Made by a program: the position numbers and the translations under genes. A model generated the notes under the pieces. It searched no databases and was not told the DNA's origin. It saw only the letters and a list, made by a program, of their open reading frames with translations. A stretch of DNA of 64,000 nucleotides from Paraspadella gotoi (lineage: Eukaryota > Animalia > Chaetognatha), in the NCBI GenBank assembly GCA_051294375.1, contig CM119270.1, positions 21,109,775 to 21,173,774 on the forward strand, given 5' to 3'. Below are positions 3,461 to 56,028 of this stretch, one piece after another. Numbering within the stretch: position 1 is the first letter of the stretch; every line of letters begins with the position of its first letter.

Positions 3461-3537
<77 letters not shown>

Positions 3538-3827: not shown

Positions 3828-3875
<48 letters not shown>

Positions 3876-24263: not shown

Positions 24264-24301
<38 letters not shown>

Positions 24302-25028: not shown

Positions 25029-25064
<36 letters not shown>

Positions 25065-25578: not shown

Positions 25579-25636
<58 letters not shown>

Positions 25637-26113: not shown

Positions 26114-26159
26114 CTCATTCCACCTGCAATTCATTCTCTTCTCTCTCTCTCTCCTTCTC

Positions 26160-26215
<56 letters not shown>

Positions 26216-27404: not shown

Positions 27405-27450
27405 CAGGATATGTTTCGGCTCACAAGGGTTAGAGCCTTCATCAGCATTT
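27405..27450 (-). ncRNA. Degenerate minimal type-I hammerhead ribozyme
   Basis: CUGAUGA-A-GGCUC-uaacccuugu-GAGCC-GAAA-CAUAUC. Core and stem II are intact, stem III has a C-A mismatch and stem I pairs poorly. Confidence 0.5.
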
Positions 27451-28090: not shown

Positions 28091-28132
<42 letters not shown>

Positions 28133-28274
28133 CACGATAATGACATTGTTGATCCTGAGAATTCAATGACAAAGACGTCGAATAAAGTGAAAATCTCACT
28201 TACCCAAAACCCGCCTGACTCACCTCGGGTCACAAAAGAGTCCAGTTGGACGAAAACTCACCTGCGGCGACGAA

Positions 28275-28320
<46 letters not shown>

Positions 28321-28932
28321 TTAACGATCGGAAACACGGGTGATATTTTATGATATGATGATAGCGATGAGAGATGACATTTTATGACATCGGCGACTAA
28401 GATGACACTTTCTTGACTGACTGACGAAGGCGTCATTTCATGACTTTTGAAACAAATAAAACGATTCGGAAAACTGACAATAATTACTAAGACAATGACA
28501 AAGTCGATGACAAAATGAAAGACAATGACCAAGAGAAAGACAACGATGCAAAGACACACTCATTAACAATGACAAAGATAAAGACAAAGATTAAGACAAA
28601 CCTAAAGACAAAGACAAAGATAAAGAAGATGACGGTTTTTCTTTTAAACCGGTGACACCCAACGACCACAAAAGGAGGCCCACAAACGCCGATTACGAAA
28701 GACCACAAAAGACCACAAAAGACCACAAAAGCCCACAACTCCCCCACAACCGAAAAATCCAATCAGAACATCGGAAATCCACTTCAAAATCCTTTTCTTC
28801 TTGAGAAAAAAAAGGGACAAAATCTGGGAAAAAATAGAAAGAAAAAAATATATAAAGGAATAAAAGGAAAGCCGACTCCTGTTGCTTTTCGGCTTACATC
28901 TTGTCGTCTCTCTCTCTCTCCCTCCTCTCTCT

Positions 28933-28967
<35 letters not shown>

Positions 28968-29875
28968 CTCTCCTCTCTCTCTCTCACCCTCCCATCGCCC
29001 ATGCCTCATCAAAGGGCAAGAATGCGCTGCCCATTTTCTTTCTTCCTCCCACTTTACATGTGCTCGTCGTCGTCCGTCGTCGTCGTCTTCCTCATCATCG
29101 TCGTCGTTGGTCGTTGTCGTCCTCCGTCTCTTCCTCTTCCATCGATTGTAATCGTCGTCGTCGTCGTCGTCGTCATCGGCGGTCACTATGATTTATTCTC
29201 GCGATTCATTTTCGAGATCTGCCTTAAAAACTCTGTCGAGAGATTAGCCGACAAAAAATCAGTTTTGCCCGACAAAAAATCAGTTTTGCCCGACAAAACA
29301 AAATTCATTTTTGTCGAAGAAAAAAATACTTTTTCTTTTTTTTAATTTTTTCCGGAAAAAAAGAGACAAATTTTGGAAGGACGTTTCCGCCGCCCGCCGC
29401 CGCCGACGCCGCCGCCGCCGCCGCCCTCTTTGTGGTCGTCGTCGTCGTCGTCGTCGTCATCGTCGGTTGTTCGTCTTCATTCACGTCTTCTTGATCACCG
29501 ACGACTTCCTCTAATTTCACCTCCTAGCGATCATCGTCGTCATTGTCGTCGTCATCGTCATCGTCGTCGTCGTCGTCGTCAACTTCCGAATTCAGTGTCG
29601 TTATATCGACTTCGTCTTCTTATTCTTCCTGATCATCTTCTTCGTCATCTTTGTCCTCTTTTTTTTTTTCTTTTTTCTAAAAAAATAATAATTTCATCGT
29701 TTTTTTCTTAAATTTGTCATCTTCGTCATCATTGTCGTCTTCATAATCGGTCAATTTTTATTGTCTGGTTAAATATTATATATACATATATTCGTTGTTA
29801 ACAAAATCGTCATTGTCGTGATTTTTCTAAAAAAAGTTTTCGTAGTCATCACTTTTCAGTGTCACTGTCACCATA

Positions 29876-29906
<31 letters not shown>

Positions 29907-31678
29907 TCGTCGTCTTCGTCGTCACCTTCTCATCTTCGTCATCGTCATCTTTGTCATCTTTGTCATCGTCATCTTCGTCATCTTCATCGTCATCGTAAAG
30001 AGTTAAAAACGGCACTCCTGCATTTCTTTTTTCAATTTTTCCCAAAAGATCGAAAAGTTTTAATAAGGAAGTTCGCTGCTCAGTTCATAAAGAGAGAAGC
30101 CAATGTAAACATCCTTTTCAAAAAAAAAAAAAAAAGAAAGAAAGACCCGTAATCCCTTAAGATTAAAGCCTAAAAAAATGGGGGGGAGGAAAAAACGCTA
30201 AACTACTTTAATGTTCGCTTTTATTAATCGAGAGCACGGGATGAATGGTTAAAAAATAAAGACGTTTTAACAATGAAAAGTTTTTTTTGTATAAACGACA
30301 AATTTTAATTCATCGAAAAACACCTTTTAAAATAGCGCGGGAAAAAAAGGTAAGAAGAAAGAATAACAATATTATTATAACAAAGATAACAATTTTGTTT
30401 CTTAATGTGAACAACGACATAAAAAGAACACAGGGCGTTTTTCTTTCTCCAAAAATTACGAGTGAGATGAAAGCTGCCATCCGTCGTTAAAAACATTACA
30501 ATTATTAATAAAAACATTAATCATTTGTCGACCGAAAAAAGAAGAGAAAGAAAAAATTCAATTTGTAGAAAAATCTCTTTGAGCAAATATATCTCCTAAT
30601 TATACCCGTTGATAATCTGCAGTGAAGGCCGTTCGATCTCCGATGTTCCCTCTTGCCCTCAGCCCTTAATGGCTCAGGCCCGACCCTCAGGGCCCAACCC
30701 AGCCCCTAAAACGGATCAAGCCCGGCCCAGGTCTCGAACTCGGTTCGTCCGAACTGGAATTTCACTTTCCCTTCCCGTCTTCGAGTTGAATCAGGTTGTT
30801 TTTACGTCTCACGGATTCACTGACTCACGTATAACCGATTGGCAATTCACATCTCAATGTCATTTTCGATTTTTGGGATTCGAATGTCATTAGTAATGTC
30901 ATTCCTGATGTCACGAGAGATGACATGATCGAGGTTGACATTCCTGATGTCATTAAAGATGTCGCGCGACGTCAAAGAGAGAAGACGATGTGAGTTTCGT
31001 TTATCGCGCGGTTGGAGACGATCCGCTTCCTTCCTTTCTTTCTTTTCTTCTCTTTCTTTCTTCTCTTTCTTTCTTTCTTTTCCATTCTTTCCTTTCTATC
31101 TTTCTTTCTTTGTTTAGTCCTAATTTCCTTTCCTTTTCTTTGCTCTTTTCTCTTTCAATTTATTGTCCTTCAAAATAAAAAAACAATAACAAACAAACTT
31201 AAAACGACTCTATTTTTTTCGACCAAAGCCGATACTTTTTTTTTCGATTTTTAAAAAATTAAAATTTTCCTCGAACTTAATAATAAATCGTTTTCTTAAT
31301 TTTCTTTTTTTTGTTTGTATTTTCCGCTTCGGTCGCCATCGCTCATCCGCGGGAGATTTTAACAAGGACCCGAATCCGGTAAGATTGTTTATGTTTGTAT
31401 ATATATATATATATATATATTTCTTGCATTCATCGTTTACCGTTTTTTTTTCATGGTTTTACGGTTTGTTCATCAAATTTACGATTCACCGTTCCATTAA
31501 GGATTCAGTTTCAATTTTAAAATTCGATCCGAGATTTTTTGATGGCGAATTTTTAAAGGGAGGGTGACATGAGTTGGGTGAGATGCTTTCAATCAATTTG
31601 CATCCAGCTGCTGCCGACTGGAAAAGACGGACAAAGAATGAAGAATATTGTCCCAGTTGTGATATCTGTGAAAAAGGG

Positions 31679-31719
<41 letters not shown>

Positions 31720-33342
31720 AAAAATAAAGAGAGCAAAAATGAAAGTTTCTGGTGTCTGACCTCCGACGAATTTGAATATTTCTCTACCGCTTTAACTAGC
31801 AGTAATTAAGGGGGGAGTAGTGAATGAATGAGAGGAGGTAACGCCTCAGCCTCTCACTGGGACTTTATTTTCTTATGTTTTGTGAAGTTTAAAACTAAAG
31901 AAAAAGAATCGTTTATGTTTACTTATCGATGACATTTTGACTACGTGATTTAATGCTCTGTCTTTTTTTGTATTTGGATTGTTTAATTAATGTGAAATAT
32001 TTAATTGAGTTAAGCTTAACTTTTATTTCTCAGGTATTTACTTATGCAAGATTATTAGATTTTATCTACTTTATCTACTAGTTTGCATCTTTTCTAAGAT
32101 TCTTTCATTGATTTAACAAAACCTGACTGATATACAGACAAAAAACTTTTCTGAATTTTGAATTCATAGAAGTTTTAACAACTGAAAGCATCCAGAAAAA
32201 AAATTTGCTTATAAAAAGAAAATAACTAGACTAATCTTTATTTTTCTCATTTTCTTCATTCTTGCCTTCAAAATGGACGAAGAAACGTTCGATTAAGAAA
32301 AAAAATCAGGGGCAAAAAATTTTAATCCGCATTCAACTAATTTGCATCTTTGCGTTCGTGACTTTTTTTCGGCAAATTCGTTATCCTCAATTTTTGCGCG
32401 GGCGAATTTCGATCACGCGTCCCCTTAAATAAGCGGATTGCGCGCTTCTGCCTCATTGCGCAGAACAAACAGAACAGAAGCGGATTTAAAAGAACAGAAG
32501 CGAAAACAAATGAACAGAAGCGGAAACGAAAGAACAGAAGCGGAAACGAAAGAACAGAAACGGACGGAACAAAATCGAAACAGAGAGAAAAGCGAATAAG
32601 AGATGATAAAAGAAACGGTCAGAAAAAGAAGAGCATATAAACGGACCCCAAGTAACAGAAATTGACGGTTATGACCAGACTGAAAGCATTTGTCACAAAT
32701 TATAAAAAGTAGTATGAATACAGCTTAAGTGATCACCTTTCACTTTTCCCCTCACAATATTCTTTCGCCCGTGAGAAGGTGAAGGCGATTCGAAGGTGAA
32801 AAACTACAACAACAACGACGACGACCTTTGAGTGACTGTGACGAATCACAGAGATGTTATCTTTCCTTTGACCGGCATTCCTTCTTCCTCCGTCCCGAGA
32901 ATTCATTCATTCCATTCATTCGCTCGAGTGACCTCCATTCACCGGTCCATTCACCGGTCAAAGGATTTTCGGCCGCCGATCAAAATCCGGCTTTTAATTC
33001 TCTCGGCCGCAGAGCAAAGAGAAATATCGGCGCCGAGAAAGAATCGGAATCCGACAGAATAACATTTGGTTATTGAGAAAAGAATAAACGAAATTCGTGT
33101 AGTTAAGATCAAGATTTGACCATCCAAAGCAAACAAAACCTTGAATAAAGAATTAAGTAAATAAAAATAAATAAGGATAAAGAAATACAGACTAATAAAA
33201 TTACGTGAAATCAAATCAATTAATGAACATCTGTCGAGTCTGAAGAAACCAGTTGTCATTTAATATTGTTTAAAAATTATGTTTAATATCAGGTGTCATG
33301 TCAAACCAACCGAACAGTTTCCTGCGCCATCAACTAAAGTAA

Positions 33343-33416
33343 ACCATAATCATTATGGTCCATTTAACAGTCTGTTAGTCTCATTATGATAATGAGACTA
33401 ACAGACTGTTAAATGG
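33343..33416. repeat. Two abutting perfect palindromes (8-1-8 and 28-1-28 nt)
   Basis: accataat-c-attatggt, then ccatttaacagtctgttagtctcattat-g-ataatgagactaacagactgttaaatgg. Confidence 0.95.
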
Positions 33417-33768
33417 GCTTTAATCACAATTTTAACTAACTAATTTGTTCTTTTTAAACAGATTAAAAAGCTGGACAACCCAAACTTTTAAAAATAATTT
33501 GTCCGTCAAAATTAGATTTTTTTTTCCCAACATCGATTGGATACAAACAAAAACTCTTTCGAATTCCCGGCGCCGTTAAAACCGACCTCGACTGTAATGA
33601 CAGTCATTCCTCGTCGCAACCGAAATTCCCTCGCCGCTTTAATCCGACCTCGCTGTACAGTGGACACCGCGTACAGCGAATAATCGATGTTTCGTATCAA
33701 AGAAAAGGAAAAATCTGTTTCCTTCTTTCTTTAATTCGAAAGTCGATCTTCGGACGAAGCGACGCGCG

Positions 33769-36117
33769 ATGTCAGAACCGGAGATTACGACGACGACGAC
33801 GACGACTACCACGCCGCCACCCTCTCACCACCCACCACCTCCTCCTCCTCCCCCTTCTCCCCCTCTCCCTCTCCCTCTCCCTCCTCCTCCTCCATCTCTC
33901 CCCCCAGAAATAGAAGAGTTTCTCTCCGAGATTCGATTCGGTTTCTCGGAGGCGACGAGATTTTCATTCAAGACGAAGACGAGGAAGAGAGAAGTCGAAG
34001 TGGAGACGAGAGGGAGGAGGAAGAAGAAGAAGAGGGGGAGGGAGGAGGGGGAGAGAGGGGGCGGTGGAGAGAGCAGCGGCGGGGGCGGCGGCGGCGGCCT
34101 TTCGTTTCCCATCAACTTTTGGCGTCAATTAGAACACGGAGGACGCGACGATGATTCAAACAACGCCAACTCCAACGCCAACAACGACGACAACGCCAAC
34201 GACAACGCCAACGCCAACGACCCCTCCGTCCCCAACAGTCAATCGTCGCCTCTCCCGCCCGAAATTCGACGCAGCTTCGAGGCGCTGCGCTGCGGTGTCC
34301 TGCGGCTTGAGTCGCTCTCCGTCGTCAGGGATTTGATCGAAGATCGAAAGTCGTTGGTTGTGGAGATGGTGGAGGAGGAAGAGGATGATTGGAGGCGATT
34401 GCATATGGAGGACGTTGAGGATGTGAGAAGATTGCAGATGGAGTCCGTTGAAGAGGAGAGGCGATTGCAGATGGAGGACGTTGTGGATGGGAGGCGATTG
34501 CCGATGGGGACCGTGGAGAGGAGGAGATTGCAGATAGAGGCCGTTGGGAATGGTAGGCAATCGCGGATGGCAGCCGTTGATGGTAAAATCCCGTTGCAGA
34601 TGAACGGTGTTCAACCATCGGAGACTTTGGATGAAGCCAAGCTATTGCACTTGGAAGAAGCTGGCACATTTGAATCGTCCGAAGATCGAAGAGAGAAAAT
34701 TACTCAAGTGAATGCGGATCAATTGGAAAATCATCTGCAGCATCTTTTAAATAGACTCGATTTGATGGAAACAATAAACAAAACTGTTCAAGAGAGGAAA
34801 ATACAGCAGCAGCCGCAGGGAAATGAGCAACAGCAGGAGCAGCAGGAAGAGAAACAGCTGGAGGACTTATATGAAAATCAGATTGAAGATCAACGACAGA
34901 ATCGATTGCAGAATGAGCTTTTCATGATTTTGGAACCAATCATGGAGAATTCGGAAACGGATGAAGAAAAGGAGTTGACTGCGTTGGCAGATGGAAACGA
35001 CGATGCCTCCAATGAAGATCGCTCCAACGATGAGCAAGCAAAGGCAGCTAAGGAAGCTAAGCAAGCCTCGCTTGCATCCAGCGACCCTGCTACCTTGAAG
35101 GGAGACTCCAAGAAAATAGGAGAGGAAATAATTCGTCTTTTGGCCGAAGCCGAGATGGAACTTTGGCGTGACGGGAATAGGGAGGAGGAAGAGGAAGAGG
35201 AATTTGGAGATTATGACGCGGATGTGGTTGATGGAGTGGAGGAAACTGTGGGCGAAACTGTGGGCGATGGAGAAGATGTAGTGGTCGGTGTTGTGGACAA
35301 TGAAGTGGAAAATGTGGTGGACAATGACCCCGATGTTGTTTACGATGTAGAGGACAATAACGTTAAGGAAGTGGTGGACATTGCCGCCAACGTTGTGGAC
35401 AATGTAGAAGACAATAAAGCGGAAAATGTGGTGGACAATGACGCCAACGTTGTGGACAATGTAGGAGACAGTGAATTGGAAGGTGCGGTGGACAATAACG
35501 CTAATGTTGAGCACAATGAATCTCTCATAACCGCAAAGGCTGAAATCGTAAAGTGCGAGAAGATTGATCTAAGACCAGAACTTGTAAAAGACAAAGAAAA
35601 AGAAATAACTTCTTATAGAAACGTAAACATTGAGAGAAACGACAATGAACTAGTGAATTCGAATGATGAAGATGACAACCAAGAACCTGTGAAACAGAAA
35701 GAGATCGTGACTCGTGAAAAAACCTGTGACGCTGATGTCAGAGAAGCGGATGTGAAAGTTGCTGAAAAAAGTGAATCGAATGAAGACATCGAAGATTCTG
35801 CCGAAGACGAGGCTGGGCAAGCAGAATGCAAGGATGTTGCTGAAAAGGATGTTGCTGAAAAGGATGTTGCTGAAAAGGATGTTGCTGAAAAGGACGTTGC
35901 GAACGTCGAAACCAGGGACAATGTCGAAGAGTCATCCTCAAGAGTTGCTGCAAAAGTCTGCGCGACGGAAGAACCAGTTGCGTCCAAAGAGGAAGTTGCT
36001 GAAGACCAAGAAATGGACGCCGAGAATTTGGAAAAGGAAGCAATGGACATGGACGTGCAAATACGAAAGCTCATTGAATCCGTCAACGCGTTGGTGCAGA
36101 AAACAAAGGAGGTCTAA
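33769..36117 (+). CDS. ~780-aa acidic low-complexity protein with RRLQME, VVDN(V/D) and KDVAE repeats; no recognised domain
   Basis: 2.35-kb open frame in an AT-rich background with codon-periodic repeats. Some segments are probably frameshifted (see findings). Confidence 0.75.
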   Translation: MSEPEITTTTTTTTTPPPSHHPPPPPPPPSPPLPLPLPPPPPSLPPEIEEFLSEIRFGFSEATRFSFKTKTRKREVEVETRGRRKKKKRGREEGERGGGGESSGGGGGGGLSFPINFWRQLEHGGRDDDSNNANSNANNDDNANDNANANDPSVPNSQSSPLPPEIRRSFEALRCGVLRLESLSVVRDLIEDRKSLVVEMVEEEEDDWRRLHMEDVEDVRRLQMESVEEERRLQMEDVVDGRRLPMGTVERRRLQIEAVGNGRQSRMAAVDGKIPLQMNGVQPSETLDEAKLLHLEEAGTFESSEDRREKITQVNADQLENHLQHLLNRLDLMETINKTVQERKIQQQPQGNEQQQEQQEEKQLEDLYENQIEDQRQNRLQNELFMILEPIMENSETDEEKELTALADGNDDASNEDRSNDEQAKAAKEAKQASLASSDPATLKGDSKKIGEEIIRLLAEAEMELWRDGNREEEEEEEFGDYDADVVDGVEETVGETVGDGEDVVVGVVDNEVENVVDNDPDVVYDVEDNNVKEVVDIAANVVDNVEDNKAENVVDNDANVVDNVGDSELEGAVDNNANVEHNESLITAKAEIVKCEKIDLRPELVKDKEKEITSYRNVNIERNDNELVNSNDEDDNQEPVKQKEIVTREKTCDADVREADVKVAEKSESNEDIEDSAEDEAGQAECKDVAEKDVAEKDVAEKDVAEKDVANVETRDNVEESSSRVAAKVCATEEPVASKEEVAEDQEMDAENLEKEAMDMDVQIRKLIESVNALVQKTKEV

Positions 36118-36384: not shown

Positions 36385-39173
36385 ATGGAGTCCCACTTCA
36401 TGTTTCCTGACGAAGTGAAGGCATACCTCGACAACGTCGCCCGCGGTCGCATGCAGATCTCCAACTACAGCATCAAGAAAGATCTGCATCAGGACAAATG
36501 CCTTCTCAATCTTTCCTTCACCAACGCGCCGGCCGCATTTCCGTCTGAGGTTTGTGATATGTTAGTGATATGTCAGTGAAAATAACAACGACGTTCCATG
36601 TCATTGTGACACGGAAAAGAATCTCTCCTTTTCCTCGAATTCTGACATAAAAAAATATCATAAATGTCACTAACAAAATGAAAATTCGGTTAAGAATTAT
36701 AATAAAGATTTAAACAGCTTAAGATTTTTGAGAATATTTGCGGTTTTTTTATTACCTTATTTTTTTTTTTTATTCATAACGAGATTACAAAAAGAGTGAT
36801 TAATCTCTCTATAGAAAATTATCATTGTCTTAGAATTTCTTTGACACGCGCTATGACCTCCCTTTGAGCTTATTACCCAAAAATGAGAAAAGGAAGAGAA
36901 AATATAAAAAAATTATGAAAAAAACCAAAATTGTTCTCACAAGTCGCATTTCAGAACAACTAAGGAAGATTTTGTGATGAAAACTTTGCATGAAGCGATA
37001 AATATTCTTTAAAAGTTCAGTAGACAGTATTTCTCCTTTCAATTAGAGTGGGACATAGTTTTAAAACTTTAATTTGTATGGATGAATTCGTGGCATTTCC
37101 CCAAATTCTCATTTATTTAATAACCCATTTAGAAACCACCCCTCATTATGAAAATGGTTCAATCAATTTAAAAATTATCCATTCAATTATTAAACTTTAT
37201 GACTTTGGGCAAAATAATGACAATAGCAGAAACAGATCAGTTTTCAATAAAGAATTACCTTTAATTACTAATTCTAATTCTCTCTCTTCGCCCATAATTC
37301 CACTCCTTCCTCTTCCTCCTCTCTCCCTCCTCCCTACCCCCTCCCTCTCCCTCCCCCTCTTTCCTCCGTCCTTCCCTCCCTCTCCCTACCCCCTCTCTCC
37401 TCCCCCTCTCCTACCTGGCTCTTCTCCTCCTCCCCCTCCCCTTCCCTCCGTCACTCCCTCTTCTCCCCTACCCCTCTCTCCCCCCTCTCCTTACCTGGCT
37501 CTTCTCTCCCTCCCTCCCCCTCCCCTTCCCTCCCTCACTCCCTCCCCTTCCCTCCCTCTCCCACCCCACCCCTTTCTCCCCCCTCACCCCCACCATCCTC
37601 CAAGGTCCAAGACTAACCTCGACAAAATCTCCGCAGGCAACCTTCGCGTCTCCGACTACGACATTCACCGCGACGTCAAAAAGGGCGACGGTCGAGGATG
37701 AGTTTGGCGCCGCCTCCGCGAACGACGCCGCGAATCGAAGGCGCGGGAAGCGGCGTCGCCATTCCGGCCATCGGCTTCGGCAGCGGCGTCATCGGCGTCA
37801 CGAGCGAGGACGCCGAATTCACGAAGCCCTTTTCCGATTTCGAGTCGGCGTCGACGAGAGATTTCGACGTCGGGACGCCGGTGGGGCAGCTATTGGCAAA
37901 TCCGACGCCGGAAAAAGCGGCGCCGGTCGAAGAAGAGATCAAGGATCCGGTGGAGAGAATCAAAGAGGCCGTCATCGATTTGAAGGAAAAGAAAAAAAGA
38001 AAAGAGGGAATCATCGAGTGGCTTTTGAAAGAATTGAAAGAGAAAGAGACGACAACAACGACGATCCCCGTTGTCGAGGAAACCGTCGTCGTCAAACCGG
38101 ACGCAAACAACAACGTGGGAGAAGAAGTCAAGCAGGTCTCCGAGGCGCCGGTCGAGAGGGTCGTCCCGAAGACTCTGCCACCGCCGCCGCCGCCGCCAAC
38201 AACGCCGAAGCCACCGAAATCCCCTGGACCGCCCACGCCGCCAAAACCGAAACGCCACGAAATGGCGACGATTGCGGCGCCGGTGGGCGTGGCGTCGGTG
38301 GGCGTGGCCGACGACGACGTCGACGGCGCCATCGACGATCATTTCGAATTCTTGTCGTTGGAGGAAGAAGACCTTGTTCGCGTTGACGAAGGAGTTGAAT
38401 ACGACGCCGCCCTCGACGCACTGGAAACGGTCGTCGCGGAAATCGACGCCAACGACGGCGACGCGCTGCAGCGGACGCAGGAGTTGCAGCTGCAGCCGCA
38501 GGACGTCCCGCAGAATTCCAAGCAGTTGCTGCGCCGGCAGCAGCAGCTCGACGCGGCGACGTCGACCAACGATTTGCTGAAGAGGAAATCGCTGGAGTTG
38601 CTGGAGAATGATGGGGTTGGGGTGGAGGATGTTGAGGAGGAGAAGGAAGAGGAGGTGGAAGAGGAAGCGAAGGAGGAAAGGAAGGAGGAAGAGAGGGAGG
38701 AGGAGGAAGAGAGGAAGGAGGAGGAAGAGAAAAAGGAGGAGGAAGAGAAAAAGGAGGAGGAAGAACCGGTCGTCGAACCTCCAAAGCCGAAGAAGAAGAG
38801 GAGGAAGTCGAGTCTCTTGAAGGGAGTCTTGGGAAGTTTGTTCGGCCGAAAGAAGCGTCGGTCTTTGTCGGGCGGAGAGGAGACCGACAGTCGGGCAAAG
38901 AGTATGACGTTGCCCGCCAGATTGGACGGAGCGGCGGTGATGAGGGTGGAGGGTGGAGGGAGGGAAGAGGAGGAGGGGGTCGTGGTGGGTAAAGGGGAAG
39001 AGGAAGAGGATACGGAGCAGCCGCAGCAGCAGCTGGAGCCGGAGCAGCAGCAGGAACATCAGTGGCCTGAGGTGCAGGAGCAGCGACAGGAAAGCTCTCC
39101 GGAGACGCAGCGCCGCAGCGAAAGTGTAATCGTCCCGTTTCGATTGCAAAAGGACAAAATGAACATCGCGTAA
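36385..39173 (+). CDS. Two-exon gene (36385-36549 + 37605-39173): tandem ~45-aa N-terminal domain followed by a Pro/Glu/Lys-rich disordered region
   Basis: Donor GAG|GTTTGT and acceptor ccAAG|GTC after a pyrimidine tract, phase 0. The splice joins FPSE|VQD to form a second copy of the exon-1 motif. Needs about 3 single-base indel corrections at 37615-37697. Confidence 0.7.
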
Positions 39174-40839: not shown

Positions 40840-43100
40840 GAGAGAGCAACAAGAGCGCATGACGGTGGTCAACAGCGAAAATATTTCTCTCTTAATGAAT
40901 CAGGACTTTTTTTCATTGAGACCTCAAAGAGTCAAGCGGACCACACATAATGTCCACACCATTAATTTCCAACACACAATTTTTCTGATTGGGATTTAAT
41001 AAAAAAAAAAAAAAAAGAAAGCGACGCTAGGGCATCCCGAAGATTAATGAAGTTTTTAATTATTTAGTTATTGATAATTTGAAATTTAGTCTCTTACCAT
41101 TTTTTTGATGATGATTATTTAAAATAGATATTCGCTCCGCGCTAAAAAAAATCCGAAGAACCGACGGGTTCTGATTAATGTGGTTTCCTCGCAATTTGTC
41201 ACTATAGCGCCAGTAAATATACAAAACCAGGATATTTCTAAAACTCAGTGTTTGTGCTATCCAACGCCCCGAACAAGAAAATCCATACAGGTTTGACTAA
41301 AAATACTGAAAATAATACACGGCGCTTATCTGAATTCTTTTTAATTTTTTCATTTTGCGATATTTACTGTTTAAGTCAAATAAAATATACAGCAGTCATG
41401 CACTTGATTTCGATTCGTGGTTTAGCCTAACTTTCAAGCAATAACGAAAAATAAATGACCTCATAGTAAGAAATAATAGCAATAATCAATTTTTTTTTCA
41501 AAATTTGTTTCTTTGTCTTCTACTGTTCTTTGCAAACATGTCCTTAAAATTATAAAAAATAAATTACTAATAAACTACAATTCTTAGTACATTTCGTTCC
41601 GGAACAAAAATTCATTTATATCATAGTTCAATATGAGCTTTGAAATAACTCATTTCTTTGCAGATTTACCCCTTATGATAAAAAACCTTGTATTATAATA
41701 AAAAATAAAACCAATAATTACCTACAGCTACATGCATTAGCGTGTATTAAAGAGTGTAGTGCTCTTTTTTAATAAAAAAGTTATAGTTAATATAGCTAAC
41801 GGGCTTATGCAAAGTGTTAATTTGCACGAAGATGACAAAATTAAAAAATTGATAATATAGCCTTTTAACCTATAGTCATAGTTTTTAAATCAGCCGAACA
41901 AAGTGAACTCCTAATTTTCATATTTAATCATATGATTTTTTAACGTCCTACATGGAATTTTTACTTTTTTTTGTTTTCAACAAAATGATAATTCATTACC
42001 TTTATTAATTATAAAAATTTGATGTATAGAAAATTTTGTTTATATCAAAACATAATTCAATCTTTTCTCTTTCATAATCTATATTTATTTATTTTTTATA
42101 ATACAGCCAAGTGTAGTTTAATTTAATTTCAAAAGTATAGGTTATACTTTTGACTAAATCCGATATTCCAAAGATTTTAAAAAATCCGTGAAATATGTTA
42201 AAAACATTATATACATGAAAAGATGCCCCATAATGATGGCTTAATATGATACCAGTCTCATCGTTCTATCATTTGGTTTTCAAAAGATATATTAAAAAAA
42301 TCAAATTTTTTTTTACCAATTAAGACACCTCAGCCAAAGCTAAAAAAAATTAAGTGTAAACCAAAGAGAAAACTTTGTTTATACGAACGCAGAATTTTTT
42401 AAAAATTGGGCTACAGCCGGCGTGGGCGAAAATGACCACCATTATTTTTGATAGATATTTTTCCAAACGCGGGGTCAAATTTATTGCAATTACATCCATA
42501 ATATTACGATCTATTTCCTATTCATGAAATGTTAAAAGATAAATTTAAGAATAACATTTATAAAAAGCACCAGATTAACTTGCCGTAATCTAATCAGTAA
42601 TTTGTAAATAAAATAAATCAAAATTGTTTAATTAAATCGGAGATTGCTGATGATGTATAATCTCTTGTAAAACTTTTGCATATTTCGAATAAACATAATG
42701 CTTTAAAAAAAATATAATCACTAAACGAGATAAAAAATCACAAAAGGGTATAAAACGAAAAAAAACCCATTAAATGATGAGAGAGAGAAGGAGAAGAGAT
42801 GGAGAGAGAGAGAAGAGATGGAGAGGAGAGAGGAGAGAAGAGAGAGAGCGAGAAAGTGTGTTTCGTATTTAAAATTTCGGTTTGGAACGATCCATAGTCT
42901 CTACTTCGATCTGTCTCTTCGATCGCGGGTCACAAGTTCAGTCTCATCTTCGCTTGACGGGAAACGACGACAACGACGCGACGAACGACGACGACGACGA
43001 CGACGACGAGAAAGAGGTGGATTTAATTAATTTAATGAAAAGAATAAAGATGGATTCCCGCTGTTGTATCCTGCCTTAATTTCGAGCTTACTCTCTACTC

Positions 43101-43131
<31 letters not shown>

Positions 43132-43141
43132 AGAAGGAGAG

Positions 43142-43196
<55 letters not shown>

Positions 43197-43504
43197 GAGA
43201 GCAAAACTTTTCACCTTTCAGGTTTGATCCAAGTTTTTTATTTTTATTTTTCATTTTGTTCATTTAATTTTTTTTTTTTTCAAATTTGGGTCAATGTCCC
43301 TTAGGCGATTTTTGGAGAATGTGGCATCGAAAGAATGGAAGGGAGATAAGGGTCTTGAAGGGAACGGGTTGGATTTTGGAAGAGGTCATCGAGGCAAGAT
43401 GTTTAATTCGCGGGTGATCGTTTTATGTCCTCGGAACTTTTTCTTTATTTGTCGATATTCTCCGTGGTGTGAAAATATTGTTTCACCGAAGAGAGAGAGA
43501 GAGA

Positions 43505-43540
<36 letters not shown>

Positions 43541-43766
43541 AGAGAAGATGAGAAAGAGGAGAGAAGAAGACGAGAGAGANNNNNNNNNNNNNNNNNNNNN
43601 NNNNCCGAGGACATAAAACGATCACCCGCGAATTAAACATCTTGCCTCGATGACCCTCTTCCACAATCCAAACCCGTTCCCTTCAAGATCCCTTATCTCC
43701 CTTCCATTCCCCTTTCGATGCCACATTCTCCAAAAATCGCCTAAAGGGACATTGACCCAAAATTTG

Positions 43767-43802
<36 letters not shown>

Positions 43803-43866
43803 AAGATGAAACAAATGAAAAATAAAAAATAAAAACTTGGATCAAACCTGAAAGGTGAAAAGTTTT

Positions 43867-43910
<44 letters not shown>

Positions 43911-44043
43911 CTTCTCTTCTCTCCTCTCTTCTCTCTCTCTCTCTCCTCTTTTGATTAGAGAGGTAAGCTCGAAATTAAGGCAGGATACAACAGCGGGAAT
44001 CCATCTTTATTCTTTTTCATTAAACTTAATTAAATCCACCTCT

Positions 44044-44083
<40 letters not shown>

Positions 44084-44197
44084 TATCCCGTCAAAGCGAA
44101 GATGAGACTGAACTTGTGACCCGCGGATCGAAGAGACAGATCGAAGTAGAGACGTATGGATCGTTCCAAACCGAAATTTAAATACGAAACACACTTT

Positions 44198-44253
<56 letters not shown>

Positions 44254-44680
44254 AGCTCTCATCTCTCATCTCTCTCATTAATAATGTTTTTTTTCGTTTT
44301 ACCTTTTGTGATTTTTTATCTCGTTTAGTGATTATATTTTTTTTAACATTATGTTATTCGAATATGCAAAAGTTTTTTACAAGAGACTTATCATTCATCA
44401 GCAATCTCCGTTTTAAATAATCATCACAAAAAAGGTTAAGAGACTAATTTCAAATTCAAATAACTAAATAATTAAAAACTTCATTAATCTTGGCATCAGC
44501 GTCGTTTTTTTTTATTAAATCCCCAACAGAAAAATGTGTGGTTGGAAATTATGTGTGGACATTATGTGTGGTCCCTTTGACTCTTGAGTCTCAATGAAAA
44601 AAGTCATCGATTCATTAAGAAATATTTTCGCTGTTGACCACCCGTCATGCGCTCTTTGTTGCTCTCTCTCTCTCTCTCTC
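40840..44680. repeat. Inverted duplication around gap 43580-43604: 42638-43434 vs 43605-44410 and 40840-41124 vs 44411-44680
   Basis: Reverse-complement identity. The right arm lacks 41125-42637. Confidence 0.9.
41125..42637. mobile_element. ~1.5-kb AT-rich presence/absence segment (possible TE insertion)
   Basis: The mirrored arm joins ...tatttaaaa directly to cggagattg... (44410/44411). No clear TIR or TSD. Confidence 0.45.
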
Positions 44681-47273: not shown

Positions 47274-50200
47274 ATGGAATTCCTCTTCTACGCGGCGTCT
47301 TTATCGGCGCTCTTCGCCCTCCCTTTCGTCATATCCTGCCTCCTCCTCTTTCTCCTCCCAACCGGCGTCGTTTTCAAACGCTGGTCCATCGCGGCGCTTT
47401 TTCACCCATTTCTCTCTCGCGATTCCTTCGAAGGGGCGCCGTCCTTTTGGTTCGATCGACGCCGAGTCACGTTCGACGGTGCCGGCGGCGGAGCGGCGTC
47501 GCCAGGCGGGAAAAAGCGGCGCGGGCGGCGCTGCTGTGGCGGCGGCCGAAGCGGCGTGGATTTTTGGACGCCACTTTCGTTCTGCGCATGCGTCGTTTTC
47601 AGTCTTTCTTTCTTCGTCTTCGCCAGAATTTGGTTGTTCGACGCCGCGGATTTCTCTGCGGCGTCGGCGGCGGAGTCGGCTGCTGCCGGGTGGGATTGCT
47701 TTGGAGACCCTGGGATGCAGTGGACGGATCCGGGTAAGTTTTAAATATAATTTTAGTCGCTAAAAATGATATGTAGTTTATAATCATATTACGTTATCCT
47801 TATATCATTTTAATCACGTATCAGATTTTTTTCATGCTTCCACAGCTAAATTTTAACATAAATGTTAGACAAAATAAAAAACACATAAGTCTATACTGTA
47901 TATCGCATCCCAATAGTTCAAGAAAATTAAAACTTTGATCTCTTCACGGCTTTTTCTTTTTAAAAAACTAAATTGTAATTTTCCTTGTCAAAAGAAATTA
48001 TCTTCGGATTTTAAATTTGTGTTTACCTTCTTTTTAACAAGAAGGTGGCAGCGACGACGACGATAACGACTATGACGACGACGAAGAAGATAACAATTAA
48101 AATCTTTTCTTTTTGCCTCCCTCCCCCCCCCCCGAGTTCAAAACCGTGAGAGAGTGAAGAAGATGGACAGAAAAGGAATATAATGACATTTATTTTTAAA
48201 AAGAACCGAAAAGTGTTCTCCCCACTTTTGGCATTAGGAACCGATTTATCACCCTTATTTGTCGTATTGGTCATAAGTTAATAACAATATTTCATTAATC
48301 ACATTGAGCTTACAAGGGTCAACAAGTAATTTTTTTTTCTGAACATACATCACGGTAAATTAGACCTTTTGATCGTGAACATTGTCGATTACTGTGACCC
48401 AATAAATAATCCAAGAAAACATAGAATTTTTTTTTTATTTAAAAAAAACACGATGACAGTGACATTGCACTGTGATACAATAAATTGACCTATCAAGACA
48501 TCATTTAAAAATACTTAAATTTCGGTAACGTATGATATGTCATTGTTATTTATTTTAATTTGATCATTTCTTGGTTGGTGCGTTCTTTAATAAATAAATT
48601 TTTCTTGCTTTAATCTATATACTTGGAAATAAACATAAGCATTAATAATACCATAAAACAACATTACTATACTTAATTATTATAATCACGACCATTGCAC
48701 AAACCGACGCCCGTAAAAAATCTTTTAAACTTCACATGAATTACTGCTATATGCAAATTAAAGCAAAAGTAATTTTTTTAAAAAAATTTCTTACAATTAG
48801 GAATCAGCGGAAAATCCTTCGACAACAACTACAACAAACCTTCCGCTTCCTCCAAACAAACGACGATGACGAAGACGACGACGAAGACGACGACGACGAA
48901 ATCTTCACCCTCCCCCACCCCTCCCCCCTTCCAACCCGTCTCCAACGCAACCATCTCCGCCATCGCCGCCGCCGAAATCGATCGGCGCCTTCGACTCTTT
49001 CGTCGACGCACCTTCGAGGAGATGGAGGACCTCAGCCGCACCGCTGCCGCGCTGGAGTGCTCCAAGCTGCTGAGGACGACCACCACCCTCGCTCCAGCCG
49101 CTACTCCAGCGACAACGGCGTGCGCGACTTGCTGGAGCGAGGCGGACATCGCTGCTTTGATGATGAAATTCGCTCAGAGCGGCGGACCGAGGGACGGTGG
49201 GGGTGATACTGTGGGGAGAGGGAAGAGAGAGGCTGGAAGCGAATTCACTGTGGGGAAGGGAAAGGGAGAGGCGGGAGCTGAAGTCACTGTGGGACGGAGA
49301 AATGGAAAAGAAGGAAAAAAGCTGAGAAATGACAGTGATAACAATGATAACAATGACGCTGACATTAATGACACCGTCTCTCATCACAACAAAAGAATCG
49401 AGAGAGCCGCCTCCTCCTCCTCCTCCTCCTCCTCCTCCTCCGCCCTCGACAACCTCTGCTGTCGCCGCGCCGTCCGCTGCTGGCGCCTGCACCCGACGCC
49501 GGACGACGCCGTCCTCGGCTTGGCAGCCGCTGCGGCGCTGCAGTGGGTCATGACCGGCGCCTTTCACTTCGTCTCCTTCGTCATCATCTCGACTCTGCTC
49601 CGCGCCGACGGAAAAAGCGGCGTCTACGCGCCGGGACGGACTTCGGCTACGGCGACGGCGACGCCGTCGTCATCGTCCGTCACGGCGTCGTCGTATCCTC
49701 GCGACGACGACGACGACGAAGATTCGCGACGTCTCGTCAAACGATCATCAGCGCCATCTACTCTATTTCGAAAAGTCGTCCTTCCTCTCGTCTTCGTCAT
49801 CGTCGTCCTCGTCGTCGTCGCCGCGCCGCCGCTGCTCTGCGAGACGGCGCCGCTGACGACGCCGGAGACGATTCAATGCGTCGTCGTCGTAGTGGGCGTG
49901 ATTGTCTTCGGCGTGGCGGCGTTGACGTTTCCGTGGGAAGAAGGGATGATGGAGGAGAGTCACGTCTGCTGGTGCGAGAAGAAGAGTGATGGAGTCGTGC
50001 TGGGGAGATATCAGGTGAATTTGATGATGATGGGGCTGGGGAAGCCGTAAAGGCTGGGGAGCATCGAATTCTCAAATTCTCACACCGTCTATATGAGAAT
50101 AAAATCCAATTTAGGTTTCATATTGAAATCGCTGTCTCCTTACTCAAACGGGAGATACAAATACGAAAAAAATACTTAAATGTACTTCGCTATTTTACAT

Positions 50201-51702
50201 ACAAATTTTATTCCAATACAGAGCAAGCTCACTTACGGGAAAAGATAAAATTTTGCCCTACAAAAAATATTTTTGATCGTAATTGTTATAGATGAATCGG
50301 GGTCGCTTAAGTTTGCGTGTAGCCTTGTACTCTTGCCAATATCAATTTCCTTTGAATACAAAGGGTCACTAAAAACTTTTCTCTTCATTTTTTAAATTAA
50401 ATCGCGGACGCTAAAGGTTCCGTCTCGTTTTCAACTAACATAATCGATAAAATAGAAAAAAAATTTTAACTTCAATATGCAAATGAGATTAAAAAATATT
50501 TTCGTCTCCATCAGGTCTCTACGAGCAGCAATTACTACCAACTCCATTTCGGCATCGACGATGACGACGACGACGACGTCGCCAAACCTCCTCGCCCAAC
50601 GTCTTCGAAATCCACGTGCGACTGTCACTCAACGCCCCCTCCGACTCGAACGCCCGAAAAACTCCAACGCCACCACCAGCGCCACCTGCAGCGACATCTG
50701 CACCGGGCGCCGCAAAGGCCGGTGTCCAAAGAGACGCCGTCCTCGTCAGGCGCGTCCCTCGTCAAAGACGGCGCCGTCTCGCCGACGCTGGCGGCGACGC
50801 TGCCGACGTTAGCTCTGCCGGAGTTCGGCGAGATTCGCAAAGACTCGGAATTGTCGTCGTCGTCGGCGTCGTCGTCGGCGGCGTCGTCGTCGGCGGCGTC
50901 GTCGGCGGCGTCCTCGACGACGATCAACTTCGGGGACATCGGGACGTCGACGATGGAAGGAAGGTTGACGGAAGACTTGAAGGAGGAGGTGTTCCACCGA
51001 GGAGGAGGAGGAGGAGGAGGAGGAGGAGGAAGGGAGGATGAGAGGCCGAATTCTTTGGAAAGAAATTCCAACGAGACTTTCATCGTTTACGACGAAGACG
51101 AGACGCCGACGGGTTGTGAAGCGCCGGAGAAATTCTCGGCGCCTGAACGTTGCGTCACGCCGGTACCCTACGGCGCCGGGATGGCATTCACGGCGCCGGA
51201 TCTGCCGAATGGAATCGAAGATCGAGATTCGACGCCGGAAGAAATGACGCCGCCGCCGACGCAGCAGGGATTCATCGTCGCCGAACATTCGACGCCGTCG
51301 CCGCCGCCGAGAGCAGCGCCGCCGCCGCCGCCGATGAGGCTAAGCGACGCCGTCTGCCCGCTGCTGTCGCCGCTAGACGGCGCCGTCCCCGCGGCAGCAC
51401 CGGCGTCCCCTGCGTCGAAGCGGCGTCAATTTCCCGACGAAATCATCGCGGATTTGAGTCGAAATTCTAAATTTCTCACCAACGGAGTTCGTGACTTTGG
51501 AGACGATAACGACGATCCATGGCGGTTGCTAAGAGACGCCTCTGTTGCTAAGGAGACGCGACGACTTTACGATGACGACGACGACGCGCGCGTCCAAGCG
51601 TTGGCGCTGAGGAGAGTCGAGGTGGCGCCACGAGCGCCGGAAGTCAGGACGGAGTTTCCGCCGACACCGGGAGAAGATATTTTGCACATGATCAAACTCT
51701 GA
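47274..51702 (+). CDS. Three-exon gene (47274-47733, 48801-50014, 50515-51702), 953-aa multi-pass membrane protein with a long disordered C-terminus
   Basis: Donor G|GTAAGT with acceptor aattAG|GA (phase 1) and donor CAG|GTGAAT with acceptor catcAG|GTC (phase 0). The exons total 2862 nt in frame. About 5 hydrophobic segments and a Cys/Thr-rich loop. Confidence 0.8.
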
Positions 51703-51774: not shown

Positions 51775-52608
51775 ATCTTTTTCAAGTGTTTGCTTTACTT
51801 GATTCGCTTTAATCCAATTTAAATATTTTTTCTTCGAATTTTCTTCTTCGAAAATCGAAGTGAGAAAAAAAAAACCGCAAAAAATTTTTCCCCCTTTCTC
51901 TCCTTAATTATATTCATTGTAAAATTGAATTTCATGACCAACTTTACTTTTTTTTTGTTCGCAGAGGTGAAGTCTGAAGATGTCACAGTCTGATTTTTTT
52001 TTGTCTATTACAAAAATGTATTATTCTTCTGTTTTTCGTTTCTTTATGATTTTTAAGTTCATTGCGTTGTTTTTATAAATATAAAATAAAATACGAAAGT
52101 TTTTTACAATGTTTAACTGTTTGAGAGAGATTCTAGGTTATAGACCCCGAAATTCTTTGGGATTAAATTCAATGGAAAAATTTATATCCAAATAATTCAA
52201 GGCTGTCAATATTTATAGGACAAGAGAAATATATAGTAAAAGATTTATCCGAGTATTATTACAAAATGCAAATTAGATTCTGAGAAATAGATTAAGAATT
52301 TAGATGCATTGATAAATAATTTTTTTCTCTGACAGTTTATTCTTAAACTAAATTAAAGCTAATTAATATATTTCTTTTTCAAAAACTAACTCAATTAAAA
52401 AATCGAACAAGAACGCGATTTTATGACAATCAAAACGAATTTGAATTAACTTCTTCATGATGCACATTTTTTTTTCAAATAAATAAACTAGATTAACCGT
52501 TAATTTCAAAAGCGCAAATTAATTTTTATTTCTACGGAGAAAAAATGACAAAAAAAATCACTTCTACATCAAAAACAAAAAAATAAATGAAACAAAATAT
52601 GAAGCGCG

Positions 52609-52666
<58 letters not shown>

Positions 52667-52906
52667 ATGGAGGAAGAATAGAAATAATTAAAAGAAAAGA
52701 ATGTTTTGTTTTTCTAAATTAAGAAGAAACAAACAAACAAAAGAGAAAGAGTGAGAGTAGAGAGAGAGAGAGAATGGAGGAAGAATAGAAATAATTAAAA
52801 GAAAAGAATGTTTTGTTTTTCTAAATTAAGACGAAAACAAACAAACAAAAAGAGAAAGAGAGATAGAGAGAGAGAGATTGATTGAGTGGGAGAGAGAGAG
52901 AGAGAT

Positions 52907-55900
52907 TCATTTATAAGTCGTCGTCTTGAGGCATTTGTCCACAATGACTGGCAGAGTGATGTCATCCAAATCCGATGCTTGAATCTCCAAATTTCCTGTC
53001 GTAAATGAAAAAGAAAAATAAATTCGGATGAAAGTGAATAAATAAATAAATAAATGTAAAATATATTTAAAAACATCGAGGGCAGGACTCCTACGGCGCC
53101 GCTACCCGTGTTTCTCTCTCACTCTCTCTCTTTTAAATTACTTTTTAAGCCTTTTTTTAAATACTTTTCGGGAATTTTTATTTTTATTTTCGGTGTTTGA
53201 ATGGATTTTTTATTTGTAGGTCGTCGTGTTCAAACACTTGGAAATGACTTCAGGCAAAACCAGCTCTTCTAAGTCTGAAGCCTGAATCTCAAGGATGCCT
53301 AAAAGGGGTGTTTTTTTTGGGGAGGGGGTTTGTTGTTTTTTGTTTTTTGTTTTGTTTCGTGGGGAGGAAAACGGATGAAAAAAAAAACAAATTCGAGGTT
53401 TGGGAGAAAATGAAGGAAAAAAAAAAGAATGAAAAGTAAATTAGAATGAGATTGAACTTTAAGCGACGATTATGGATGCAAAATACGTAAACAAAAATAA
53501 AGATGAGCAAAGTTATGACTGTGAGAGGGCGTAGCAATCACTTGGGTGAAATAAATGAGCATCGGCAGGCAGGAGGAGTTCTTCACGATGATGAACGACT
53601 AAGAACTTGAATTCGGAAATCGCCAAGAAGGGTCCTCAGGAAACAAAGGTTTTCCGGCACTATTTTTCAAAAACGCCCTTTACCAAGTTAATTAATTAAG
53701 ACCCGTACTCTTTGTAATCTTAAACTTTATCTCCTGACCATAAACCTTAATCCCTAATCCGAAACTATATTCATAACTTTATTCATTAATCTACAACGTA
53801 ACTTTTATATTTTACCCAAACTTTTAAATAAACTATTGATTTATCTCTCAATTGAGACTGAATTCGGGGGCTTTTGGAAAATACGGCCGGTTTTCAGGCA
53901 TTCAAAAACAGAAGATCTTTTTTTCGTCTTTGGAAGAAAGAAATTAACCTTGAGGATAGCAACATATTAAATAACGACAGTGAAGAAACAAAAAAGTAGC
54001 GTGCCCGAACTGAAACGTTAATCTACAAAGATGTCGCTAATGTACAGGTTTGACATAACAAAAGAGCAACTAATTCGACGACAGGGTCACAGAAGTTTAC
54101 TTTTTATAATTTGCATGTCATCTTTTTAAATATTTTTTTTCATATTTATTTATGTGGGATTCATTATTTTTTTCTTCTCGCAAGACAAATCGAGGCTTGT
54201 ATCAAATTTGTTTGAATTTTTGGTTATTTCCGCTTTTTTTGCTTTCTTTTGCTTTCTTTTGCTTTCTTTTGCTTTCTTTTGCTTTCTTTTGCTTTCTTTT
54301 GCTTTCTTTTGCTTTCTTTTGCTTTCTTTTGCTTTCTCTTCATCAAACCACGATCGTATTTTCAAAAAGAAATATTTTGTAAATATTTTTAGTTTCGTTA
54401 AAAAATGCTTTTTTTTTTTCTATGCGTTTATCTTTTTTATTATTTTTGTTTATTCTTTGTTAATATTTGTATTTATGTTTATATTTATATTTTCGCTTTT
54501 GTTTCTATTTATATTTTTTTTTCTTCTTTTGTTTTTCGCTCACCGACGAGTTTGTTTTTCAACGCGTCTTTGGACGACGCGTACAGCATTTTTTTCTTGA
54601 TGTTCGCTTCGTCCGGACAAAATACGATGAAAGTGAGTTTGTTGCGGTGTCCGCCTTCCGAAGTCACGTACCGAATGTCGTAGCAAGCGTAGCGACAATC
54701 GCGTTGCTCCTGTACCGACTGCAGGTAGCTGTAGGAGCGAAGGGAAGAGCAGTGATGAAAGGTTGTCATAAAGGTTATGACAGTGACAACAAAAGGAAGT
54801 GAAATACTTTGACCAAGAGGGTGGTTGTGAAAAAAAAAAATGAATTACTGTGCCATTTTCTCCTCCAAACCTCCAAAAGGGTGAGTAATCGGCTTGCGTG
54901 GTCGGGTCCACGCCGCAACCCGGATTCTCCAACACTTTGTCCACAACGATTTGCTTCAAGTTGTCGCTCAATTTGAAGATACAGTATTTGAACTTGCGCT
55001 TTTGTTTCATTTCCTCGTATCGATCGACGCATTCGTCCGCCACCTGGACTCCGGATTGCTGAAGAGGAAAACGGGAGAGTGGGAAACAAAAGGCAATCGG
55101 TTTGAAAGTTGATATTACAAGGTTTTTTTGTTTTTTTTTAATACAAAAATTTCAAACTCAAACAATAAAAAATTATTCGAGAATTGAGAAGAATTTTAAA
55201 AAAACTTCGCTTGAGATCACGTGACTTCAAGTTTCTTAAAAATCCTAATTAAAATCTAATTCAAGTTATAAATTATGATCTGAAGCGAAGGGATTGAGTT
55301 AAGACCTTGAGACCTTTAGTCCCTAGGTTAAGACCTTGAGACCCTAGGTTAAGACCTTTAGACCCTAGGTTCGTAAATTAAAAAAAATTGCACAATTGCT
55401 TGGTAGTTAAAGGCTGTCTGCTTGGATTACGGTACAAACGAATGTCAATATGACACTCAACTATAAACAATGACCTTGATAAGTGCAACAATTTACGTAA
55501 ATATTAATATTAATTCGACGGAGAAAAATCACAAATAATATGAGAAAGAAATAGTTTTCAGTGCTGATGAACGAGGATCTGTTTTTGCCGGCGAAATCAT
55601 TGCAGATCATTGCCGATCGTTGCAGCGCTTCTTCAACAAAAATTTTGAGCTCTACTGTTGGTGAATTGAGCTCAACTGTTTGTCAGTTTAGCCCAACTGA
55701 CGAATAATGAAAAATAAAGACTCTTTCTCGATTGCCAAGGCGTTGTTGAATAACATTAGGTTACATTATTTATTATCATTTCTCTTTAATCTTCCGTGAT
55801 ATAAATTTCAAAGTAAACAACGCTTCAAATTAACTGTGTTTGTCTGCGAGTTTACTAAAAGCACAATATTCCTTCAAGGTTCCTTCAAGATTCCTTCAAG

Positions 55901-56028
55901 GTTCCTTCAAAGTGTCTTCAAGGTTCCTTCAAGGTTCCTTCAAGGTTCCTTCAAGGTTCCTTTAAGGTAATTCAACCATAATTTATGTTAATTTATGATA
56001 ATTTCTCGAATTCCCCACCTACCGGCAT
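52907..56028 (-). CDS. ADF/cofilin family actin-depolymerising factor, 155 aa (exons 56028-56023, 55058-54871, 54728-54544, 52995-52907)
   Basis: MPQSGVQVADEC...KYCIFKLSD..QIVV...CRYACYD...KLTFIVFCPDEANIKKKMLYASSKDALKNKLVG..EIQASDLDDI. All junctions are GT-AG and in phase, total 468 nt. Confidence 0.95.
53210..53298 (-). CDS. Alternative (proximal) last exon of the ADF/cofilin gene
   Basis: ccccttttAG|GC then GILEIQASDLEELVLPEVISKCLNTTTYK-stop. 89 nt, same length and phase as the distal exon GNLEIQASDLDDITLPVIVDKCLKTTTYK-stop. Confidence 0.9.
53654..53890. mobile_element. MITE-like element in cofilin intron 3
   Basis: TIRs ccggcactatttttcaaaaacgccc / gggggcttttggaaaatacggccgg, TTTT on both flanks, internal taaccc-like repeats. 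Confidence 0.6.
54241..54336. repeat. 10-bp minisatellite (GCTTTCTTTT) x ~9.5
   Basis: Read directly. Confidence 0.95.
55869..55968. repeat. 11-bp minisatellite (CCTTCAAGGTT) x ~9 in cofilin intron 1
   Basis: Read directly. The unit contains the quasi-palindrome CCTT-C-AAGG. Confidence 0.9.

Follow-up and report, generated by a model that had tools for sequence, protein, structure and literature searches.

The closest described counterpart of the gene reported here is unc-60 of C. elegans, in which one ADF/cofilin gene gives rise to two isoforms by alternative 3' processing (PMC3469465). The unc-60 products share exon 1 only, exchange exons 2–5 and are about 30% identical (PMC3469465), whereas 126 of 155 residues are common to the two products predicted here; a preliminary description of our locus had stated that unc-60 makes its isoforms by a different scheme, and this is borne out. 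A likeness lies in the C-terminus: severing by UNC-60B needs residues near it (PMC3469465, PMC2963174), and mutations there remove severing but not G-actin binding (PMC2963174). The vertebrate non-muscle and muscle cofilins (CFL1, CFL2, destrin) likewise differ in their actin affinities (PMC2963174), but they go back to whole-gene duplication and have diverged along the whole chain. Invertebrates typically have one ADF/cofilin variant, splicing being unmentioned in the accessible text of this source (PMC4696841).

The architecture of duplicated last exons is itself common and already known. Tropomyosin, Cdc42 and KRAS (4A/4B) have such alternative last exons: their terminal exons are homologous, and the choice between them is made through the 3' splice site and polyadenylation. 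Terminal exons are treated apart from true mutually exclusive exons (PMC5740500). Our literature search for a tail-only swap in a cofilin gave only unc-60, most subscription journals lying outside its coverage; a conserved swap of this kind is probably undescribed so far.

The last helix has been addressed with engineered alanine alleles. In the yeast allele cof1-22 (E134A R135A R138A), F-actin binding is reduced, tropomyosin binding is lost and the severing of tropomyosin-bound filaments is strongly impaired; the defect on naked F-actin is only moderate (PMC2572843). In fission yeast, adf1-M3 (E132A K133A) shows near-normal monomer binding with slower filament binding and severing and is synthetically lethal with the deletion of aip1 (PMC3206353); the triple counterpart failed to grow (PMC3206353, Table I). 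The gene analysed here carries two tandem duplicated last exons and probably makes two 155-residue cofilins, of which the one ending in exon 4A is predicted to be weaker on filaments.

Results

Structure of the cofilin gene

The window, by which we mean the whole stretch of 64,000 nt that was analysed, contains an ADF/cofilin gene with two last exons, 4A and 4B (Table 1). Cofilin is the protein by which actin filaments are cut and recycled. All three donors have GT and all four acceptors AG, and exons 1–3 joined to either last exon give an open frame of 155 aa. Residues 1–126 are common to both predicted products, the last 29 are swapped, and 10 of the 155 residues differ. Exons 4A and 4B have the same length including the stop codon (89 nt), lie 214 nt apart and are in phase 1 like the exon-3 donor (54544/GTGAGC). 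The exon coordinates, lengths, phase, spacing, translations and codon examples of the preliminary description all agreed with our re-check. In the window exons 2 and 3 are single-copy and exon 4 is present twice, which is not the layout of unc-60.

Table 1. Features of the cofilin gene and of its candidate processing signals (positions refer to the window)
Feature	Position	Strand	Remarks
ADF/cofilin gene		-	three shared coding exons and two last exons, 4A and 4B
Exon 1, coding part (Met-Pro)	56023..56028	-	phase-0 donor GTAGGT; inferred from sequence
Exon 2, shared	54871..55058	-	188 nt; phase-2 donor GTTTGG; Pfam Cofilin_ADF E 5e-05
Exon 3, shared	54544..54728	-	185 nt; phase-1 donor GTGAGC at 54543; Pfam Cofilin_ADF E 1e-18
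YGCY cluster	53465..53614	-	7 motifs; upstream of 4A acceptor region; candidate Muscleblind-type sites, speculative
4A 3' splice region	53299..53456	-	156-nt AG-free zone, weak A/C-rich tract
Exon 4A, proximal alternative last exon	53210..53298	-	residues 127-155; TAG acceptor, TAA stop
Spacer 4A-4B	52996..53209	-	214 nt; 4A 3' UTR and 4B 3' splice region
Two AATAAA, candidate polyadenylation signal	53177..53188 (53188, 53182)	-	just after 4A stop; A-rich context
Exon 4B, distal alternative last exon	52907..52995	-	residues 127-155; CAG acceptor, TGA stop
AATAAA, candidate polyadenylation signal	52525..52530	-	about 380 nt after 4B stop

Both products are ADF/cofilins as defined by one ADF-H domain (PF00241) and a length of about 135–165 aa, with exons 2 and 3 scoring above the cut-off. 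The near-invariant cofilin columns S4, G5, K95 (the F-site lysine), K111, M112, Y114 and S116–K118, the latter forming the helix motif K-M-x-Y-A-S-S-K, are all conserved in the shared exons. The long actin-binding helix is encoded by exon 3, which is 87–92% identical to eight relatives. The relatives start with MP-A-SGV in the same register as exon 1, and one of them, P0168, apparently a genomic read-through, matches the interval of exon 2. Vertebrate cofilin genes likewise have a phase-1 last intron, in the corresponding glycine codon, as would suit an animal gene.

Two tandem homologous exons of equal phase, each with its own acceptor and stop, fit the layout of duplicated alternative last exons. 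Both end in stops and no common downstream coding exon follows, unlike in classical internal mutually exclusive exons. The preliminary description had spoken of mutually exclusive last exons; the two duplicated last exons stand, but the exact term is alternative last exons, because both are terminal.

Two further observations concern the gene body. An insertion of about 10–13 residues relative to yeast and amoeba cofilins precedes the second helix (54871–55058, residues ~46–58) and is conserved in the relatives. Introns 3 and 1 hold short tandem arrays at 54237–54336, 55864–55968 and 55298–55381 (10-nt, 11-nt and irregular units).

Age of the exon duplication

Exons 4A and 4B are identical at 55 of 89 nucleotides. 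The same residue is encoded by 18 of the 28 whole codons, in 13 of these 18 cases by a different codon, and the stop codons differ as well. According to the Nei–Gojobori method synonymous differences are saturated (pS 0.88) at a pN of 0.24, which argues for an old duplication kept by selection. Under a random mutagenesis null at equal nucleotide distance, 37% of the runs stayed open, yet none of 200,000 was open with at least 18 identical residues; judged by the codons and by the conservation of both tail classes in the relatives, both exons are thus shown to be under purifying selection. No common sequence was found between the flanks of the two exons (local scores 32 and 17).

These data uphold the earlier view of an old, selected duplication, and the diverged exons, the unrelated flanks and the single copy of the body exons in the window likewise agree with the statement that 4A and 4B are not an assembly copy. 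An assembly fold-back was considered as their source and rejected: the fold-backs in the window are inverted and 84–98% identical, whereas 4A and 4B are direct copies with 62% identity.

The inverted duplications themselves comprise 17275–25634 versus 25662–35693, 42628–43434 versus 43605–44420 and 4–1662 versus 2970–4765 (84–98% identity). At the centre of the first two of these large duplications lies a 25-N gap. All may be fold-backs produced in assembly or amplification, or else genuine palindromic repeats.

The two tails in relatives

Related proteins were collected by a search with exon 3, which gave 14 proteins, and by cluster look-ups, which raised the number to at least 58; two of the clusters (34 and 27 members) were represented by 15 members each. 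The proteins come from environmental assemblies, where they are encoded by intron-free frames on contigs of about 1–2 kb that we infer to be spliced transcripts. Among the at least 58 relatives listed, 41 carry an A or a B tail (19 A, 22 B), 16 are of a third type, C, and one has no tail.

Among the matches listed, 11 of the 21 distinct 90-residue bodies (41 relatives) occur with both A and B tails, so that the use of two tails expected from the preliminary description is seen at the protein level in the relatives. With the full 126-residue body the fraction is 10 of 22 among the matches listed, incomplete starts and P0023 being excluded. In the both-tail bodies among these matches the switch always falls at residue 127, which is the exon border, and the 11 bodies form eight groups at 97% identity and six at 95%.

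In a tree of the tails the window's 4A groups with the A tails and 4B with the B tails, each label requiring one change (0 of 500 shuffles). With its 29 columns the tree gives modest support, the SH-aLRT values being 89 for the A group and a weak 43 for the B group, and no A or B branch is starred. The 4B tail is 100% identical to that of P0016 over its 29 aa. The window tails group with their own class though the window's body is only 79–84% identical to the relatives' bodies, which argues that the duplication predates the window species and these relatives.

The type C proteins (20 proteins with 7 distinct tails) are sister cofilins of about 60% identity and have a single tail class. Their tail resembles B (69%) more than A (59%) and shares D146 and K150 with B, which points to the B tail as the ancestral-like and the A tail as the derived form. 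Some type C proteins (P0013, P0058, P0316) run past the usual final lysine into W and unrelated residues and others stop there; an intron located at the stop codon, or yet another alternative end, may account for this.

Distances were compared by Mantel tests on the relatives among the matches listed. A-tail distances correlated with body distances (r 0.54, p 0.016), B-tail distances did not (r 0.11, p 0.26), nor did A with B distances (r -0.13, p 0.76); the B tails may be too invariant to track the bodies. Some tails recur on different bodies, and the tail of P0007 resembles a B/A mosaic. Chimeric assembly of environmental sequences can join bodies to tails.

A metagenome scan gave 17 loci, all of them distant cofilins (34–59%) from outside this lineage, and tblastn revealed a second tail exon at none of them; the tandem 4A–4B layout was thus not found in a second genome among these loci. 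In a FastTree analysis of cofilins, which was weakly resolved, the nearest named rows were a scallop and an annelid (local support 93, unstarred), which hints weakly at a spiralian animal. The scallop cofilin-like isoforms X1 and X2 (P0186, P0319) differ at the N-terminus through an alternative start, not in the tail.

What the tail swap changes

The structure of the B-type relative P0016 was modelled from an alignment of 146 rows (pLDDT 85.7). The model has a cofilin fold with the long actin-binding helix and a C-terminal helix, and Foldseek retrieved actophorin (E 1e-13), yeast cofilin (E 7e-13) and other cofilins. Residues 127–155 comprise a strand (129–133), a short helix (136–139) and the last helix (141–152), which position 140 directly precedes.

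Among the tails listed (12 distinct A, 10 distinct B) four columns do not overlap between the classes: 140 (V/L/M in A, T in B), 143 (E/D in A, the small hydrophobic residues V/L/A in B), 146 (S/A/K in A, D in B) and 150 (N/S in A, K in B). Column 128 is N in every B tail and variable in A among the same tails. The window conforms to both classes, with V140, E143, S146 and N150 in 4A and T140, V143, D146 and K150 in 4B. Net charge runs from -2 to -4 in the A tails and from -1 to -2 in the B tails, so that A is about two charges more negative among the matches listed.

In a gap-free alignment, positions 146, 147 and 150 correspond to yeast E134, R135 and R138, the residues exchanged in cof1-22. 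The acidic/basic pair at 146 and 150, the common form, is kept in 4B and lost in 4A, and K147 is kept in 4A. Of 132 distant cofilins, 88 have E/D and 13 have S/A at position 146; position 147 is K/R in 116 and thus the best conserved of the three, while position 150 varies widely (R/K in 56). Position 140 holds a polar or small residue (D, S, A, E, T or N) in 121 of these 132, and the hydrophobic residue of the A tails is therefore unusual. The 4A-type tails thus resemble cof1-22: at the counterparts of E134 and R138 they have S/A/K instead of D and N/S instead of K, respectively. However, cof1-22 and adf1-M3 are engineered alanine alleles, whereas 4A is a selected natural isoform that keeps the middle lysine and carries other changes too.

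The tail contacts actin. That the C-terminal helix belongs to the F-actin site had been called established, which agrees with the yeast mutants (PMC2572843, PMC3206353) but not with all structural sources. In the F-site list of chicken cofilactin (18–23, 86, 93–99, 130 and 132; PMC5945598, Suppl. Table 1) the last helix is missing; the alignment end-points would put residues 130 and 132 roughly where the swapped segment begins. For human CFL2, E151–K152 are placed at the interface and the text assigns residues 147–148 to the F-site, but one figure legend puts alpha5 in the G-site (PMC9018683). The structural basis of isoform-specific severing is described there as poorly understood (PMC9018683).

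Since the residues aligned with E134 and R138 are lost, position 140 is hydrophobic and the tail is about two charges more negative, 4A is predicted to be a weaker F-actin binder and severer than 4B; we give this prediction an even chance. The isoforms would likely, as proposed before, be tuned only in filament binding or severing.

Splice-site and 3' end signals

The 4A acceptor has a pyrimidine fraction of 0.55 versus 0.80–0.90 at the three other acceptors, and an AG-free zone as long as its own precedes only 19 of the 3,662 AGs on the minus strand. A branch-like CTAAT is found at 53444, 145 nt upstream of this acceptor. The 4B 3' splice region has a U-rich tract and an AG-free zone of 90 nt. 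Seven YGCY motifs, as found in the cluster upstream of 4A, were reached in 1 of 103 GC-matched segments and in 12 of 426 overall (shuffle p 0.005), the segment having been picked post hoc. YGCY is the Muscleblind motif, and binding upstream of an exon generally represses it (PMC13044900). The weak 4A acceptor and the YGCY cluster would fit a regulated proximal and a default distal exon.

Intron 3 and the spacer contain no RBFOX, Quaking-type ACTAAY, GTGTG or TGTGT motif. For the CUAAC-repeat and UGUGUG elements of unc-60 these parts offer no clear counterpart; they hold one CTAAT. Nor was a convincing docking–selector pairing detected, the inverted repeats being only low-complexity A/T or GA/TC pairs.

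An AATAAA lies downstream of each exon, but such hexamers occur often in DNA as A-rich as this; a third copy on the 4A side overlaps the 4A stop at 53214. Candidate 3' UTRs measure tens of nt to about 200 nt for 4A and about 380 nt for 4B. A donor-like GTGAGA at 53122 in the spacer could also create an intron in the UTR, between 4A and 4B. At 52652–52863, within the likely 4B 3' UTR, a stretch of 107 nt is duplicated in tandem at 90% identity and carries CT microsatellites.

Other open frames of the window

A Pfam scan of the 174 other open frames in the window gave nothing above the curated cut-off. An acidic, repetitive frame of 824 codons (33643–36117, plus strand; no Pfam family above cut-off) lies in a long inverted repeat, and its partial mirrored copy at 17655–19911 (minus strand) is broken into shorter frames. 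Long low-complexity frames of 518, 422 and 410 codons occupy 37617–39173, 48782–50050 and 50470–51702 on the plus strand and likewise match no Pfam family above cut-off. The last of these converges on the cofilin gene, stopping some 800 nt short of the candidate polyadenylation signal of 4B.

Discussion

To judge from the exons and from the relatives' tails, a two-isoform architecture of the gene is very likely. In the mechanism that we propose, the exon-3 donor would be joined either to the weak proximal acceptor of 4A or to the strong distal acceptor of 4B. If 4A is chosen, 3' end formation would take place in the spacer, and 4B would be cut off by polyadenylation or left untranslated in the UTR; if 4B is chosen, 4A would be removed along with the intron. 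Since each exon carries its own stop, only one tail would be translated and a special exclusion device would be unnecessary. Exon 4B would provide the default, ancestral-like form. The regulated form would be 4A, which lacks the acidic and basic counterparts of yeast E134 and R138 as well as the polar residue expected to cap the last helix and is about two charges more negative. A wider reading is that a whole marine animal lineage, possibly the arrow worms, toggles between a strongly severing cofilin and a natural 'cof1-22-like' one by swapping the last helix, in a tissue-specific manner and possibly under Muscleblind-type control; we offer it tentatively and hold it to be somewhat doubtful.

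We considered three alternatives. First, both isoforms could be made and differ mainly in the binding of partners (tropomyosin, AIP1, CAP, phosphoinositides) or of monomers rather than in the severing of bare filaments. The cof1-22 phenotype would suit this, with tropomyosin binding abolished and naked F-actin moderately affected (PMC2572843), as would the synthetic lethality of fission yeast M3 with the aip1 deletion (PMC3206353) and the grouping of alpha5 with the G-site in the CFL2 legend (PMC9018683). The same yeast mutants, however, also lower filament binding and severing (PMC2572843, PMC3206353), and we consider a difference mainly in partners or monomers unlikely.

Second, the switch could serve the 3' UTR, i.e. 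stability, localisation or translation, the protein tails being functionally near-equivalent. Alternative last exons always exchange the UTR, here with different candidate lengths, and 18 of 28 residues are common to both tails. The A class also drifts faster, with a mean p-distance of 0.17 versus 0.07 for the B tails and 0.11 for the body among the matches listed. On the other hand, four positions are class-fixed across bodies about 20% apart and the charge shift is consistent among these matches; as class-specific residues are kept, the tails are not expected to be equivalent, and a pure UTR switch appears improbable.

Third, that a single exon is used in this organism and the other is a recent relic, or that the relatives' pairs are chimeras of two paralogous genes, could draw on the chimerism of environmental assemblies, on tails sitting on different bodies and on the mixed Mantel tests, but it is very improbable given that neither exon is broken, each having an AG acceptor and codons under selection, that both follow one single body in the genome, and that the relatives' bodies are not sorted into an A gene and a B gene, 11 identical bodies among the matches listed having both tails with the switch at 127.

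The preferred reading, two cofilins that differ in the strength of their last helix on filaments, is in our view somewhat more likely than not and bears on a longer debate. Which residues are responsible for severing, monomer sequestering and tropomyosin sensitivity continues to be debated on the basis of engineered mutants and of paralogues with differences throughout the chain. 4A and 4B are a natural pair under selection whose 10 differences in 155 residues all fall in the last strand and helices; at four of these positions the difference is fixed across many relatives among the matches listed. The two proteins make a clean and cheap pair for assays and bear on the question of whether the last helix contacts filaments specifically. 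The reach is limited by the common architecture and the non-model organism. If the wider reading given above is true, the gene would add to the vertebrate paralogues and nematode unc-60 a third and minimal way of obtaining muscle and non-muscle cofilins, and would offer a natural ten-residue experiment on the role of the last helix on bare and tropomyosin-coated filaments.
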